A stretch of DNA of 64,000 nucleotides from Candidatus Micrarchaeia archaeon (GTDB taxonomy: Archaea; Micrarchaeota; Micrarchaeia; Anstonellales; Bilamarchaeaceae): positions 102,960-166,959 of the forward strand of contig JAXLQI010000003.1 in assembly GCA_046331685.1 (NCBI GenBank), read 5' to 3'. Under the pieces are notes generated by a model that was not told where the DNA came from, searched no databases, and saw only the letters and a program-made list of their open reading frames with translations. A program made the position numbers and the translations under genes. Within the stretch, counting starts at the first letter, position 1; each line of letters opens with the position of its first letter. Positions 829 to 22,994 of the stretch are shown piece after piece.

Positions 829-1035
829 ATAGCATAGGCCTGGCATATCTTTAAAAAGCCGATATATCATATTATCCTAGTCAGCGGTCATAGGAAGGGG
901 GTAAAACCTGATCCCTTTTCGAACTCAGAAGTTAAGACCCTTCACGGTGACACGAGTACTGCCCTCCGGGCGGGAAAATTCACTGCTGCTGACACTCATC
1001 TTCATTTTTATATTCCCTCCAGTCTTATTCTTGTC

Positions 1036-10147: not shown

Positions 10148-11098
10148 ATGCAGATGCTCAGGCACCCGGCCGTAAAGGCGACCAGAACCAGGTTCTCCGC
10201 CGCCCTCCTCATCGCAGGCTCGATCCTCCCGTCGTGCATGCCGAAGGAGCAGCCTAAGCTCTTCCCTCCTCCGGACTGCTCGGATATGACGATGACTGTC
10301 GAGCAGATCGACGCCTGCTGGGCAGCGAAAGAATCGTTCGTCCCGCTTTATCCTGTCACGCGGGCAGAAGCAGCGGACCGGCAGCCTGACGCCGGCCCCG
10401 CCATGAAGGTCGCGATCCCTCCAGGGTGCGCCGAGAACATGTCCAGGGTGGGTCCCTTCTGCATAGACCGGTATGAGGCATATGTCGTCTCGGTGAGCTC
10501 TCCCGAAGGGACCGCCCACCCGTTCAACGAGCCGCTGGGATCCGGCCGATTCATCGCGAAGTCCGCGCCGGGCGTCTTCCCCCAGGCGCACATCAGCGGC
10601 GAGCAGGCTTCGGACGCCTGCATGAACGCCGGCAAGAGGCTCTGCACCATGGCCGAATGGCAGAGCGCCTGCATGGGAAGCCGCGGTTTCGCTTATCCAT
10701 ACGGCAACGAGAAGATGAGCGGCACCTGCAATTCCGGCAAGAGATGGGGCCCGGGGCTCCTTTCCGGCGGCCCGTCCTACAACCTCAACGACCCCCGCCT
10801 GAATCTCCTCGAAGGCGGGCTGGCGAGAAGCGGAGAATATGATCTGTGCGTCAGCGATCACAACGTCTACGACATGGTCGGCAACCTGCACGAGTGGGTG
10901 AGCACACGTGTGGACCAGTCCATGGTCGGTTCTGGGAAGACCAACATCCCCGGCCTCTATGTGGTGGCGGGCAACGGGATATTCATGGGCGGGTTCTATA
11001 CGCTCGATGCGAGCTGCCGTTATAAGATAATCGCCCACCCGTTCAGCCACTACGATTACTCGACCGGCTTCAGATGCTGCATGGACCCGAAGAAATAG
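10148..11098 (+). CDS. Secreted lipoprotein with an FGE-sulfatase (SUMF1/EgtB-like) domain
   Basis: Signal peptide plus Cys lipobox. Family-like motifs CIDRYE, YPYGNE, the GNLHEWV-type (GNVWEW-like) and a C-terminal FRCC. Confidence 0.6.
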   Translation: MQMLRHPAVKATRTRFSAALLIAGSILPSCMPKEQPKLFPPPDCSDMTMTVEQIDACWAAKESFVPLYPVTRAEAADRQPDAGPAMKVAIPPGCAENMSRVGPFCIDRYEAYVVSVSSPEGTAHPFNEPLGSGRFIAKSAPGVFPQAHISGEQASDACMNAGKRLCTMAEWQSACMGSRGFAYPYGNEKMSGTCNSGKRWGPGLLSGGPSYNLNDPRLNLLEGGLARSGEYDLCVSDHNVYDMVGNLHEWVSTRVDQSMVGSGKTNIPGLYVVAGNGIFMGGFYTLDASCRYKIIAHPFSHYDYSTGFRCCMDPKK

Positions 11099-12009: not shown

Positions 12010-12966
12010 TTGTCCATGATAACGGCAAGCCGGACCAGGAGTTTGCACGACCGTGCCCAGGGTACGATCATCGGAGCTGCGATAGGAGACGCCCTCGGCA
12101 TGCCGACCGAAGGGATCTCGAAAAGGACGCTGGAAGGAAGCTACGGTGGGAAGGTCAGCAGCTTCCAGCGGGCCCTCGGCGGTCACCCATGCAGCCATCT
12201 CCGAGCCGGCCAGTACACCGATGACACGCAGCAGCTCATCATCCTCGCGGAATCGCTGGCCGAACGGGGCGGGTTCGATCTGGATGATTTCGGACGCCGT
12301 CTTGCGTTATGGGGCAGGCGCTGCAGGCACGAGCCGGGTTACGACAGGTACGCCGGAACCTCCAGTCTGGACGCAGCGGACAGGCTCACGGCAGGCATCT
12401 CCCCGCTCAAAAGCAGCGGGGCTGGCGTGACATCCTGCGGCTCTGTGATGCGCGTGGCCCCGGTAGGCATCTTTTTCAAGGATTTCGGCGAAGCTTTGAG
12501 GGAAGCGCGGTTCTCCAGCGTCCCCACCCACGATTCCGATGTATGCAAGGATGCCGCCGGAGCCGTGGCCGGCATAATCAACCTGATAGCGAGGCAGGAT
12601 CTCCATCCGTTCAACGCAGCCCGCAAGGCTCTTGATATGATAACCGAACCGATCATACGGGAGAAGATGAAGCTTGCCATGGATATGGCCGGGGCATCTC
12701 CCGAGGATGCGGCAACGGCTATCGGGACCGGATGCAGCGCTTCGTCGACCGCCTCCTTCGCGATCTACTGCGTCCTCAGTTCCCCGGATGATTTCGAGAA
12801 AACGGTCATAACAGCGGCCAACTCTGTCCCTGGCGACACCGATTCGATAGCGTGCATCGCAGGGGCGATCTCCGGCGCATACAACGGCCTCTCTTCAATA
12901 CCGCCGAGATTCCTTTCAGTGGAGAACTTCGATTACCTGCGTTCCCTCTCTTCGAGGCTTGTCTGA
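12010..12966 (+). CDS. ADP-ribosylglycohydrolase family protein (DraG/ARH-like)
   Basis: GAAIGDALGMPTEG signature and overall ARH-like sequence. 318 aa. Confidence 0.8.
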   Translation: MSMITASRTRSLHDRAQGTIIGAAIGDALGMPTEGISKRTLEGSYGGKVSSFQRALGGHPCSHLRAGQYTDDTQQLIILAESLAERGGFDLDDFGRRLALWGRRCRHEPGYDRYAGTSSLDAADRLTAGISPLKSSGAGVTSCGSVMRVAPVGIFFKDFGEALREARFSSVPTHDSDVCKDAAGAVAGIINLIARQDLHPFNAARKALDMITEPIIREKMKLAMDMAGASPEDAATAIGTGCSASSTASFAIYCVLSSPDDFEKTVITAANSVPGDTDSIACIAGAISGAYNGLSSIPPRFLSVENFDYLRSLSSRLV

Positions 12967-12968
12967 AC

Positions 12969-13658
12969 TCAGCGCAATTCGTACTCGTAGCTCACTGCCC
13001 TCATGCTCTGCCCTTCTGACGGGGTGAAAGACACCCTGAACCTCAGGGGCCTCTCGGGCCGTGCGGTGATATCGCATCCGTCGGTGCCGATCCTCTCGCA
13101 ACCGGGCATCGCGACGAATCCGCCGCCCTCGGCGTTGAGATATTCAAGGCTGAGACGGGCTCCCTGGAGCTCGTGGGATGCCACGGCGCATTTCCCTTCC
13201 CCTTCGCACGGTGGGCTGTCTATCACGTATGCCCTGGCCGTGATCCTATCCAAACCCTCGTGGCTCTGGTCGAGCGCGCATTCTATGGCGATATCGCCAT
13301 TTTGCCATTGGGTCAGGCTGCGCAGGGGAGTGATCCTCGGATCCGGGCTTCCGGTCCTCCCTTGGTCCGAGTCGCCTGAGGTCATGACGACCCCGTTCGC
13401 CGCGCTCTGGCAGTCCTCGATCTGTTCGATGGTGAGCATCATGCTGTCGCAGTCCACAGACGGGCTGCCCGGGCGGATCTCGGCCGTGTTTCCAGCGCAG
13501 CCGGTGATTATCGATGCCGCGAGGGCTTCTGAGAGAATCCTTCCGATCGCGCGCGGCCGCGCCCCATTAATGCCGGTCCGTTGCTGTCCTTCTTTCTTCA
13601 AAAGTGCCATAGTGAGCCTCCTTGAGGGTATGTTGCTGTTTCGTATTTTAAATACCAC
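12969..13658 (-). CDS. Secreted lipoprotein, hypothetical. The true start is probably the internal Met at about 13610.
   Basis: MALLKK...ASIITGC gives a signal peptide plus lipobox. It shares the post-lipobox module DCDSMMLTIEQIEDC with the FGE-like lipoprotein at 10148. Confidence 0.5.
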   Translation of the reverse strand: MVFKIRNSNIPSRRLTMALLKKEGQQRTGINGARPRAIGRILSEALAASIITGCAGNTAEIRPGSPSVDCDSMMLTIEQIEDCQSAANGVVMTSGDSDQGRTGSPDPRITPLRSLTQWQNGDIAIECALDQSHEGLDRITARAYVIDSPPCEGEGKCAVASHELQGARLSLEYLNAEGGGFVAMPGCERIGTDGCDITARPERPLRFRVSFTPSEGQSMRAVSYEYELR

Positions 13659-13707
13659 TGTTTAACACAGAATAAGCCCCGCATTGAGCCTTGAAAATTG
13701 TCCATGG

Positions 13708-13926
13708 CGAGCCTTAAGGGCGTTTTTTCCTTGCTAGTTTTTGCCAAAATTTCGCGACAAAGCGAAATTTTTAGCATGGCAAGAACGTCGAAACGTTCTT
13801 GACTGCCATTGTTGCCATGCAACAATAGCAAAAACAAAACGCCTTGTTTTTGAACTTTCGTTCAAAACAGTCGTTTTGGTTCTTAAGGTGGTTCACCGCG
13901 AGCCTCAAGGGCGAGCGCAGTGAACC
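13708..13926. repeat. AT-rich palindrome-dense element flanked by imperfect 17-bp direct repeats, adjacent to the tRNA-Asp 3' end
   Basis: Six consecutive perfect short hairpins at 13747-13878. Direct repeats gcgagccttaagggcg and gcgagcctcaagggcg. The tRNA 3'-end string caaaacgccttg is duplicated at 13834-13845. Confidence 0.5.
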
Positions 13927-13930
13927 AAAA

Positions 13931-14038
13931 CGCCTTGACCGGGATTCGAACCCGGGTCGCGAGAGTGACAGTCTCGTATGCTAGACCACAGAGCGCCCTG
14001 AGCGGTTTCAAACGCTGGGGGCTCTACACTATCAAGGC
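13931..14038 (-). tRNA. tRNA-Asp(GUC) with a putative 35-nt non-canonical intron in the D-loop
   Basis: The 7/7 acceptor stem GCCUUGA/UCAAGGC pairs across 108 nt. T-arm CCGGG-UUCGAAU-CCCGG. Anticodon arm CGAGA-CUGUCAC-UCUCG. Removing 13989-14023 gives a 73-nt cloverleaf with D-loop AGUGGUCUA. Confidence 0.7.
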
Positions 14039-14067
14039 AAAGTAGTTAATCGATTCTACTGAATTAG

Positions 14068-14077
14068 TTTTAAAAAC
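14068..14077 (-). promoter_or_regulatory. TATA box for tRNA-Asp
   Basis: gtttttaaaac lies about 30 nt upstream of the tRNA 5' end on the minus strand. Confidence 0.5.
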
Positions 14078-14097
14078 AAATCGTTGTAACTGAACTC

Positions 14098-14451
14098 ATG
14101 CTCTCTCCATCGAAGAAAGATTCCCCGGTCCTCGCCGCCCTCGCATACGGTCTCGGAACTGTGATCGCGGTGATAATCTACCTGGTCGGGAAGGAAGACA
14201 AGTGGGTCAAGTTCAACGCGCTCCAGGCATTGCTCTTCGATCTCGCCTTCGGCATCGTTTTCATTGGGTTCTTCATCGTCGCCTGGGTGCTCACGATCGT
14301 GACGTTCGGGATCGGCGCGATCTGCATCATCCCCCTCATACTCCTGGTCCCGCTCGTGCTGATAATAAGGCTCTGGCTCGCCTACCGCGCGTTCAAGGGA
14401 GAGTATTTCGAGCTTCCCGCGATCGGCCAGTTCGCCCTAAAATACGTCTGA
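14098..14451 (+). CDS. DUF4870-family small membrane protein
   Basis: AALAYGLGTVIAVIIYLVGKEDKWVKFNALQAL pattern plus two TM helices. 117 aa. Confidence 0.65.
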   Translation: MLSPSKKDSPVLAALAYGLGTVIAVIIYLVGKEDKWVKFNALQALLFDLAFGIVFIGFFIVAWVLTIVTFGIGAICIIPLILLVPLVLIIRLWLAYRAFKGEYFELPAIGQFALKYV

Positions 14452-14456
14452 TCCGC

Positions 14457-15323
14457 ATGATCGACCTCCACGCGCACACTTCGGCGAGCGATGGATCGCT
14501 CTCGTTCTCGGAGCTCGTGACCGAAGCCAAGCGGGTCGGGCTGAGGGCCCTCGCGATCACAGACCACGACACGGTCAGGTGCGCGTCGATGATCAGGCCG
14601 GGTGCCTCAGTGCCGCTCCTGATCCCCGGAGCGGAGCTGACCGTCTTCGACGAAGGGCTGGGATACAAGGATATCCACATACTCGGCCTTTTCCTTGATA
14701 CGTCGGATGCGGCTCTCAATTCCAGGCTCAGCCTGCTCGAGAGCGACCGCCTCGCGCAGAAGAGAGCGACTGTTGCGCGCCTGCGCGAGCTGGGGTACGA
14801 CCTGGATTTCGAGGAAGTGCGGAGGGAAGCCTCCGGGGCGGTAGGCAGGCCGCACATCGCGAAGGCCCTCCTGAGGAAGTATCCGGGCGAGTTCAAGTCC
14901 GTCTCGGAGGTCTTCCAGAAGCTCCTTGCCCGGGGGAAGGAGGGGTACGTCGAGCGGGAGGCGGGCTTCAGCCTGAGGGAATCCGTCGACCTCATACATG
15001 GGGCCGGAGGCCTCGCTTTCGTGGCCCATCCGCTCCTTTACCCCTACGACAGCGTGAAGCTCCTCGAGGATTTCAGGTCGCTCGGCGGCGATGGCGTCGA
15101 GGTCTACTACGATTACATCAAAAACCGTCCGGAGGAGAGGATAAGCGCGGCTGAAAACACGCGCATCATCGAACGTTACCAGGGGCTGGCCCGCGATCTC
15201 GGCCTCCTCGAGAGCGGAGGGAGCGATTTCCACGGTGCGGCCAAGGGCCAGGCTCTCGGCGTTTTCGGGGCCCCGGACCAGGTGCTTGACCGGCTCACCG
15301 CAGCTCTAAGAAAACCTTTATAA
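14457..15323 (+). CDS. PHP-domain (polymerase/histidinol phosphatase) phosphoesterase
   Basis: MIDLHAHTSASDG and ALAITDHDT motifs. The start was trimmed to the ATG at 14457, since the track ORF begins at 14202 in-frame through the upstream gene. Confidence 0.75.
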   Translation: MIDLHAHTSASDGSLSFSELVTEAKRVGLRALAITDHDTVRCASMIRPGASVPLLIPGAELTVFDEGLGYKDIHILGLFLDTSDAALNSRLSLLESDRLAQKRATVARLRELGYDLDFEEVRREASGAVGRPHIAKALLRKYPGEFKSVSEVFQKLLARGKEGYVEREAGFSLRESVDLIHGAGGLAFVAHPLLYPYDSVKLLEDFRSLGGDGVEVYYDYIKNRPEERISAAENTRIIERYQGLARDLGLLESGGSDFHGAAKGQALGVFGAPDQVLDRLTAALRKPL

Positions 15324-22869: not shown

Positions 22870-22994
22870 TCCCGTCGGCCTGACTTGAACAAGCAACCTC
22901 ACCGTTTCCGCCTTTTGGAAAGGCGGCCCAAAACTCGTCAAACCGAGTAAAGGCAAAACTACAGCGGTGCGCTCTACCATTGAGCTACGACGGG
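22870..22994 (-). tRNA. tRNA-Tyr(GUA) with a 53-nt canonical intron at 37/38
   Basis: Acceptor CCCGUCG/CGACGGG. D-arm GCUC-AAUGGUA-GAGC. Anticodon stem CACCG/CGGUG with loop CUGUAG|intron|A. T-arm GCUUG-UUCAAGU-CAGGC. Confidence 0.8.

Follow-up and report, generated by a model that had tools for sequence, protein, structure and literature searches.

A palindrome-dense spacer behind a Micrarchaeota tRNA-Asp gene, most likely its structured 3′ tail and stop-signal region

An element of about 230 nt, unusually dense in short perfect palindromes (13700-13930), lies beside the tRNA-Asp gene of a 64-kb stretch of archaeal DNA, hereafter the window. The source organism is a DPANN archaeon of the Candidatus Micrarchaeota; the closest homologues of PurH, the PHP protein and other proteins encoded beside the element come from Candidatus Micrarchaeota/Micrarchaeia. 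Most likely, the palindrome cluster represents the structured tail and stop-signal region of the tRNA-Asp gene, and not an integration scar or a mobile repeat. With moderate confidence, we read the element as a 3′ trailer and terminator spacer composed of a proximal, conserved RNA structure and a distal palindrome array that was enlarged in this lineage.

From this arrangement, we infer read-through of transcription into the trailer, termination at a U-tract, a set of processing steps and a duplication mechanism. The element would be non-coding and separate the tRNA-Asp 3′ end from the promoter of an orphan gene, and its first ~100 nt would form a structured 3′ trailer transcribed together with the tRNA. 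Archaeal RNA polymerase and aCPSF1 would stop at the double U-tract UUUUGUUUUUG, RNase Z would release the tRNA by cutting after the discriminator G73, and the hairpins would define and protect the 3′ end of the trailer. The outer arms of the distal part may descend from a palindrome seen in a relative between tRNA-Asp and a convergent gene, with the distal ~130 nt having grown here by local duplications, both direct and inverted, that probably arose through template switching and yielded three further perfect hairpins. The distal palindrome would most likely serve as a back-up, a bidirectional stop or an insulator before the orphan promoter, or else have no function of its own.

The trailer module behind tRNA-Asp

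The original prediction had placed the element next to tRNA-Asp, which it does adjoin; since this gene (longer than the tools call it, see below) is read from the minus strand, the element flanks it on the 3′ side (Table 1). The acceptor strands of the tRNA read GCCUUGA and UCAAGGC, the discriminator G is located at 13931, and CCA is not encoded. Directly behind follows a module in the order helix a, abutting the discriminator, a variable insert, a hairpin of 14-16 bp, and then a U-run. In the window, helix a comprises nine Watson-Crick pairs (13922..13930 with 13882..13874). A further stem, H1 (GGUUCACUGCG/CGCGGUGAACC, 13926-13916 with 13899-13889), falls mostly within the insert and competes with helix a, because its first five nucleotides, GGUUC (13926-13922), overlap the 5′ strand of the latter. 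The insert, the sequence of which is not conserved among lineages, also houses copy A of a direct repeat (13913..13891), a copy specific to the window. The conserved hairpin takes in part of two of the originally noted palindromes (13850-13865 and 13863-13878), and its 3′ strand constitutes the first 7 nt of a 12-mer, CAAGGCGTTTTG, that had been described as duplicated.

Table 1 Features of the tRNA-Asp 3′ spacer and its borders, in window coordinates
Feature	Position	Strand	Remarks
TATA-like box TTTTAAAA	14068..14075	either	motif scan
tRNA-Asp(GTC)	14038..13931	minus	intron of ~35 nt in the D-loop
Helix a, 5′ strand UUUUGGUUC	13922..13930	minus	begins right after discriminator G73; its first four U form a weak U4 tract
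Variable insert within helix a	13883..13921	minus	39 nt; 32-37 nt in relatives
Helix a, 3′ strand GAACCAAAA	13874..13882	minus	abuts the conserved hairpin
Conserved hairpin CGACUG-UUUUGAAC-GAAA-GUUCAAAA-ACAAGGCG	13840..13873	minus	34 nt; also behind tRNA-Asp in L094, L003 and L085
Double U-tract UUUUGUUUUUG	13829..13839	minus	U4, then U5
Distal nested palindrome, predicted four-way junction	13719..13843	minus	z = -5.1
Hairpin H5	13808-13826		enclosed by the outer arms
Hairpin H6	13780-13801		enclosed by the outer arms
Hairpin H7	13746-13771		enclosed by the outer arms
Direct-repeat copy B CGCCCUUAAGGCUCGCCAUGGAC	13700..13722	minus	ATG in block B common to L094
Possible relic of tRNA-Asp 3′ end and native flank	13666..13694	minus	UCAAGGC, 11 nt, then CUUAUUCUGUG
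TATA-like box TATTTAAAAT of the orphan gene	13645..13654	minus	motif scan
Orphan gene, 213 aa	12969..13610	minus	downstream and co-directional; bounds the element, not part of it

For comparison, tRNA-Asp loci were taken from genome, metagenome and assembly collections. No close relative is among them: identity peaks at 66% for non-self PHP proteins and at 84% for PurH. Among the fetched loci, L092, L093, L095, L096 and L098-L100 (with a cation-ATPase neighbour), as well as L097 and L221-L223 (with other neighbours), have no tRNA-Asp beside the PHP gene. The module is carried by four Micrarchaeota lineages, namely the window and loci L094, L003 and L085, to which values below refer in this order.

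In 4/4 of these lineages, helix a touches both G73 and the hairpin. Its 5′ strands (UUUUGGUUC, AUUUUCC, AAAAUUCCU and AAUUUUCC) differ, yet each is exactly complementary to its partner, giving 9, 7, 9 and 8 Watson-Crick pairs, and the inserts measure 39, 35, 32 and 37 nt. The outer part of the hairpin is kept as (C/U)G(C/A)CUG ... (C)AAGGCG, whereas the inner stems vary with their pairing preserved (UUUUGAAC/GUUCAAAA, UUUUGAACGG/CCGUUCAAAG, CGCGAACGG/CCGUUCGCG and CGUGACC/GGUCACG). When the four hairpins are aligned, 94.8% of the cells are paired (~40% in slid controls) and four pairs are altered on both sides; the covariation score amounts to 0.333 versus 0.158 in shuffles, with 0/500 reaching the observed value. 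Compensatory changes, by which a conserved structured RNA is judged, were found for 13930..13840 only, on four sequences. The earlier suggestion of a structured RNA thus holds for the proximal ~100 nt, that is, for a helix and a hairpin with compensatory changes in four Micrarchaeota lineages.

Within 233 kb of Micrarchaeota sequence, of which the whole window is part, a covariance model built on the hairpin recognised only the four tRNA-Asp-linked copies; it scored weakly on the opposite strand too. The hairpin is therefore specific to tRNA-Asp and does not serve these genomes as a terminator motif in general. The module occurs with either a convergent (L003) or a co-directional downstream gene (window, L094, L085). 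Behind tRNA-Asp of L089/L090, L091, L088, L001/L082/L084, L081/L086/L087, L083 and L002, the module is missing, and some of these lineages are as near to the window as the carriers are. The L089 trailer is not unusually structured (z = -0.4), so hairpin density is no general trait of such trailers. Gene content on the 3′ side of tRNA-Asp varies as well: a HAD gene lies 119 nt from the tRNA in L003, L085 has no HAD gene, and relative to L003 the window contains two extra genes and the element between tRNA-Asp and HAD. As a separate observation, L001 (1-200, minus), L082 (~10300-10500, plus) and L084 (minus), which represent another Micrarchaeota lineage, have a U6 run behind tRNA-Asp, followed by three or four direct copies of an ~18-nt motif (about AUUCUNNNGGAGCACNAG).

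Just behind the conserved hairpin lies the sole run of at least five U on the minus strand between tRNA-Asp and the orphan gene (13834..13830). Archaeal U-tract terminators are marked by at least one run of at least four U at the transcript 3′ end, and the double U-tract UUUUGUUUUUG has two such runs. No TATA-like box (TTTWAAW) occurs between 13655 and 14067, hence none inside the element. Given the sole U5 run and the lack of an internal TATA box, the trailer is most simply read as co-transcribed with the tRNA and ending at 13839-13829; UUUUGUUUUUG, judged by its sequence, is most likely the transcription stop of the tRNA unit. The stem-loop is immediately followed by a U-run in L003 and L085 as well, where UUUUUG stands at the corresponding place; L094 lacks it. 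In Methanococcus maripaludis, terminators with two U4 tracts worked most efficiently and bound aCPSF1 most strongly, and Term-seq in four archaeal species revealed U-rich 3′ ends without a preceding hairpin (PMC8716108).

The palindrome cluster and its distal array

All six palindromes of the original prediction are present, with coordinates right to within 1 nt, and some of the stems are longer than noted (10 bp at 13746-13771, 9 bp at 13829-13852 and 8 bp at 13848-13867). The whole 64-kb window contains 12 perfect hairpins whose stem has at least 8 bp and whose loop spans 3-8 nt, of which five fall inside a mere 122 bp (13746-13867). Dinucleotide shuffles of 13700-13930 (231 nt) contained 0.08 such hairpins on average, as compared to the five observed, a number that 1/2000 shuffles reached. 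Eleven other AT-rich intergenic stretches of the window had no perfect hairpin with a stem of at least 7 bp. The palindrome cluster is thereby confirmed as non-random, far beyond chance. Its base composition, which had been singled out as AT-rich, is indeed low in GC but unremarkable, as many intergenic regions of this window (58.8% GC overall) have 31-44% GC. Strong structure, also anticipated, was borne out by folding, well beyond shuffled sequence: for 13660-13929, the minus strand reached -104.7 kcal/mol (z = -7.4) and the plus strand z = -5.6; as DNA, the plus strand of 13700-13930 gave z = -8.1.

The outer arms of the distal nested palindrome (GGCGUUUUGUUUUUGCUA and UAGCAAGGAAAAAACGCC) extend over 13843-13821 and 13741-13719. 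The arm at 13747..13719 shares homology (p about 0.001) with the palindrome that L003 has between tRNA-Asp and its convergent HAD gene. No relative has a counterpart of H5 or H7; H6 and its flanks show a weak resemblance, by eye, to the inner hairpin of L003, GGCAGGAACUAGUUCUC. The previously described direct repeat CGCCCTTRAGGCTCGC has exactly two occurrences (13707-13722 and 13898-13913), and the reported GGTTCAC...GTGAACC stem is present. The core GGCUCGCCAUGGACA of copy B (13713..13699) is common to L094 (p about 0.002), and both copies, A and B, resemble the ribosome-binding site and start codon of the orphan gene. In that gene, this site and start read CUCAAGGAGGCUCACUAUGG (13627..13608), with degenerate upstream copies CUUAAGGCUCGCCAUGG (13718..13702) and CUUGAGGCUCGCGGUGA (13909..13893, all minus) that form the cores of the 23-nt direct repeat.

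Several short words recur in the element two to three times, directly or inverted (UUGGCA..AACUAG, AUGGCA, GAAC/GUUC and CAAGGC). The tRNA end and the word resembling the ribosome-binding site and start are each found three times, UUGGCA..AACUAG twice. Such recurrence indicates local duplication, and template switching can make perfect hairpins in a single step (PMC8794818). Small open reading frames in the element (43-79 codons) were considered as coding sequences and rejected, their frames being unrelated to L094 after six codons.

Weighing the alternatives

Some of the above observations sit uneasily with a trailer and terminator spacer. The archaeal terminators studied so far are U-tracts without a preceding hairpin (PMC8716108), so the covarying hairpin is not explained by termination alone, and L094 retains this hairpin with no U-run behind it. 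Helix a stays outside the minimum-free-energy fold of every isolated trailer, because competing stems win. The patchy occurrence of the module requires several losses or some mobility, the covariation rests on four sequences only, and the distal hairpins H5-H7 may be neither transcribed nor functional.

The same features might instead belong to a stable, tRNA-linked structured small RNA or to an RNA switch, which we regard as unlikely. As a small RNA, the trailer, perhaps joined by the distal four-way junction, would be freed from the pre-tRNA by RNase Z and persist as a functional RNA. As a switch, three mutually complementary segments would pair in alternative ways and so link the folding or processing of the tRNA to downstream read-through: X (tRNA end plus helix a strand), X′ (helix a strand plus CGNCUG) and X″ (CAAGGCG plus U-run). 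Compensatory changes in helix a and the hairpin, an insert length held at 32-39 nt and the conserved outer hairpin (CGCCUG/CAAGGCG) are consistent with this idea, as is the 13-14 bp helix that the tRNA 3′ end and helix a strand could form with X′ in 4/4 lineages. The two ‘AGGCG’ segments stay alike because the hairpin 5′ strand and the helix a strand can pair with the tRNA 3′ end. That archaeal termination needs no hairpins also favours an RNA function, as do the very strong fold (z = -7.4) and the predicted four-way junction (z = -5.1). However, the element has neither an Rfam match nor an internal promoter, the distal junction is without a structural counterpart in relatives, and the distribution is patchy, with four sequences only. 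Since the palindromes are perfect and G-U pairs are equally few on both strands (4 on minus versus 5 on plus), RNA-level selection on one strand is not demonstrated.

With respect to known RNA families, the Rfam scan proposed earlier assigned the element to none. At the gathering threshold, 5S rRNA and one tRNA were the only matches in the whole window, and a permissive scan of 13400-14300 returned nothing but sub-threshold chance matches in 13660-13930 (E at least 0.38). A C/D-box guide RNA would show RUGAUGA and CUGA boxes, an H/ACA guide RNA a pocketed hairpin with an ACA box; both were dismissed, as reading the four trailers revealed no box sequences and Rfam gave no guide-RNA match; RNase P RNA and signal recognition particle (SRP) RNA were ruled out by the Rfam scan and sequence reading.

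The original prediction saw in the 12-mer CAAGGCGTTTTG the duplicated tRNA 3′ end that marks site-specific integration. At tRNA genes, att repeats typically comprise a direct repeat of well over 15 nt of the tRNA 3′ segment. The 12-mer does occur twice, and only twice (13835-13846 and 13926-13937), but just 7 nt of it are tRNA. Moreover, its copy at 13846..13835 corresponds to the 3′ strand of the conserved hairpin and the U-run, which are also found in relatives with different tRNA ends: the equivalent is AAAGGCGUUUUU in L003, whose tRNA end is CCAAGGCG, and GAAGGCGUUUUU in L085, whose tRNA end is CUGAGGCG. Between tRNA 3′ end and trailer, the best local match spans 5-9 nt and is not significant in any lineage; deriving the hairpin 3′ strand from the T-arm and acceptor of the tRNA was likewise given up, the similarity not being significant. 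The 21-nt tRNA-Asp 3′ end has no second match in the window at up to 3 mismatches, no viral contig carries the tRNA-Asp 3′ half, and Pfam identified no integrase or transposase among the 18 neighbouring proteins, that is, within about 9 kb. The repeats enclose 79-244 nt of non-coding DNA and no foreign cargo, and the nearby ADP-ribosylglycohydrolase, with homologues in DPANN, is a normal DPANN gene. With a 7-nt tRNA part, no integrase, no longer tRNA copy and no viral match, an integration scar as originally argued is not supported.

A different and weaker repeat could point to an insertion remnant at the tRNA-Asp 3′ end, either an integration scar or a small non-autonomous element. Here, ~240 nt would have come to lie between the tRNA end and its native flank, with the last 7 nt duplicated, and would later have been lost in some lineages. 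UCAAGGC at 13694..13688 equals the 3′ acceptor strand of tRNA-Asp (13938..13932), and the 11-mer CUUAUUCUGUG found 11 nt further on recurs unchanged directly behind tRNA-Asp in L091 and has 9/11 nt in common with L089. In the latter two loci, CUUAUUCUG(UG) follows within about 7 nt of tRNA-Asp, in the window 11 nt past the second UCAAGGC; by eye, L085 has a similar motif after the module. A terminator-like scan match allows another reading of 13694..13666, as a short hairpin that ends in a U-rich tail. The segment of ~244 nt with the 7-nt repeat at its bounds could reflect an insertion with target duplication, site-specific recombination, or a deletion between short repeats in relatives. Patchiness of the module among lineages of like relatedness, the differing 3′ gene content of tRNA-Asp and the sub-terminal 23-nt direct repeats near either end would fit an insertion. 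We nevertheless consider it quite unlikely. The repeat is merely 7 nt long with no longer tRNA segment copied, the likeness of hairpin strand and tRNA end is not significant, and there are no viral, plasmid or phage matches; integrase, transposase and foreign cargo are missing, and the ADP-ribosylglycohydrolase is typical of DPANN. Clear terminal inverted repeats are lacking. In addition, deletion between short repeats could give the same end-to-flank pattern. Compensatory evolution within the segment, and hence pairing constraint, argues against a decaying scar.

A miniature inverted-repeat transposable element (MITE), another identity originally suggested, is not supported either. Within the 64-kb window, blastn found no second copy; nothing matched in the plasmid and phage collections, and the exact palindrome H6 was not detected in viral contigs. 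Of the terminal inverted repeats and target-site duplication of a MITE, the element shows at most an inverted pair of 8 nt near its ends (GGCGTTTT/AAAACGCC), which overlaps the tRNA end, and the 7-nt TCAAGGC repeat, which could be a duplication. A loose hairpin pattern yielded at least 120 non-specific matches in viral contigs and was discarded as uninformative. Parts of the element are syntenically conserved. In this it largely matches the single-copy, syntenic case for which the original prediction had itself fallen back on a terminator or untranslated region.

The trailer module by itself, its hairpin base taken as a copy of the tRNA acceptor ends, could also constitute an undescribed cis-acting RNA element of Micrarchaeota, working as a three-segment switch, or a small element that inserts site-specifically behind tRNA-Asp, proposals to which we assign a small chance. 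In the former case, the middle segment could pair with either the tRNA 3′ end or the distal CAAGGCG and U-run, linking tRNA folding or processing to termination or read-through; in the latter, the element could target the tRNA-Asp 3′ end and duplicate its last 7 nt.

Alternatively, the element might work at the DNA level as a protein-binding region, with H5-H7 and the half-site words serving as operators or upstream sites of the orphan lipoprotein-like gene, or extruding as cruciform DNA. In line with this, the stems are perfect on both strands with zero mismatches, the DNA fold is strong (z = -8.1), and H5-H7 lie beyond the likely terminator and 90-180 bp ahead of the orphan TATA box. The words TTGCCA/TGGCAA, GAAC/GTTC and AAAAC/GTTTT recur, and a helix-turn-helix (HTH) protein is encoded 6 kb off. 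Yet every palindrome differs in sequence, so no single dimeric factor is implied, and archaeal regulators usually bind at or beside the TATA/BRE (TFB-recognition element) or start site and not 90-180 bp upstream. As H5-H7 are not conserved in relatives and the putatively regulated gene is an orphan, we find a protein-binding region quite unlikely. A replication origin, or the origin of an integrated plasmid, is scarcely credible: AT-richness and dense inverted repeats would suit one, but AT-richness is ordinary for intergenic DNA of the window, there is no GC-skew switch, the 18 neighbouring proteins include no Orc1/Cdc6, Rep or partition protein, and the palindromes, all being different, offer no repeated motif akin to an origin-recognition box.

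The locus and known systems

ARAGORN and Rfam both report a shortened, badly paired tRNA-Asp(GTC) of 64-66 nt (13930-13995, minus); once 33-37 nt are cut from the D-loop, ARAGORN calls a full-length tRNA. The minus-strand order is GCCUUGA-UA-GUGUAG, an intron of ~35 nt, then UGGUCUAGCAU...CCCGGUCAAGGCG. A D-loop intron is found at the identical position in every related tRNA-Asp locus fetched. It measures ~25-35 nt and follows about position 15 (window, L001, L003, L081-L091, L094), its sequences being unrelated between Micrarchaeota loci despite the common site; tRNA-Asp of L002 has an additional intron after the anticodon. Elsewhere in the window, tRNA-Tyr(GUA) (22870-22994, minus) was missed by ARAGORN and found by Rfam. 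It contains a canonical anticodon-loop intron of ~55 nt, inside which lies a perfect 8-bp hairpin (22908-22926), and is not followed by a trailer module of the tRNA-Asp type. A 5S rRNA gene maps to 880-994 (plus; Rfam, 66.5 bits).

The TATA-like box TTTTAAAA precedes the tRNA-Asp 5′ end by ~30-37 nt on the minus strand and the start of the divergent DUF4870 gene by ~25 nt on the plus strand, and the TTTTTAAAA context upstream of tRNA-Asp is kept in relatives. On the other side, the orphan gene has a GGAGG at 13621..13617 and its ATG at 13610..13608 (minus). The N-terminus of its product is signal- or lipobox-like (…AASIITGCAGN…). This 213-aa protein has no homologue but itself among 5.8 billion proteins, its own record being a hypothetical protein of a Candidatus Micrarchaeia archaeon metagenome-assembled genome, and it matches no Pfam family.

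The 18 neighbouring proteins searched against Pfam include DnaK, GrpE, an HTH protein, HAD, an FGE-sulfatase-like protein, ADP-ribosylglycohydrolase, DUF4870, PHP, PurH, kinases and oxidoreductases. The genes for ADP-ribosylglycohydrolase (12010-12966, plus) and PHP phosphoesterase (14457-15323, plus) flank tRNA-Asp on either side, and in the Woesearchaeota proteins P0164, P0173, P0174 and P0177 both domains reside in one polypeptide; these fusion proteins suggest that the two may be functionally linked. A gene for a DUF4870 membrane protein (14098-14451, plus) separates the tRNA from PHP; it is present at the tRNA-Asp/PHP locus in the window and L091, and absent from L003, L094 and L089.

If the element is indeed a trailer and terminator spacer, it would be an ordinary gene boundary of unusual shape. 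It would place a hairpin-based 3′ trailer behind a tRNA in an archaeal group whose terminators supposedly need U-tracts only, and would imply that perfect palindromes can accumulate by local duplication in the fast-evolving spacers of DPANN. Short repeats of a tRNA 3′ end are insufficient as evidence of integration. The helix-plus-hairpin module is new to Rfam, of modest novelty, and a candidate processing or termination signal of uncultivated Micrarchaeota; the remainder is ordinary fast-evolving spacer DNA of unusual shape.

Several known systems share traits with this locus. Template-switch hairpins (PMC8794818) likewise have mismatch-free stems and nearby direct and inverted copies of short words, with the difference that the mechanism would here be read from the pattern alone. 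Resembling MITEs and REP/BIME-like elements, the element is small, non-coding, AT-rich, strongly self-complementary and intergenic; unlike them, it is single-copy in the sequence searched, has no clear terminal inverted repeats and occupies a locus partly conserved in relatives. The attL/attR repeats flank elements integrated in tRNA genes by the tyrosine-recombinase integrases of archaeal viruses and plasmids. The tRNA 3′ end, short direct repeats with the last tRNA nucleotides and a variable 3′ gene content are reminiscent of them, whereas a tRNA part of 7 nt only, the lack of integrase and cargo, and a spacing of 91 or 244 nt with the intervening sequence under pairing constraint are not.

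As in bacterial intrinsic or bidirectional terminators, a hairpin is immediately followed by a U-run and has an A-rich stretch on its 5′ side, and both strands therefore look terminator-like; a homologous palindrome stands between convergent genes in L003. The host, by contrast, is an archaeon with another polymerase and termination machinery, and the window has an array of six to seven hairpins instead of one. Archaeal U-tract terminators, which operate with aCPSF1/FttA, are known without an upstream hairpin, whereas here a covarying hairpin of 14-16 bp precedes the U-run and, in L094, occurs without it; in common with them, the locus presents a double U-tract, U4 plus U5, behind the tRNA unit (13839..13829).

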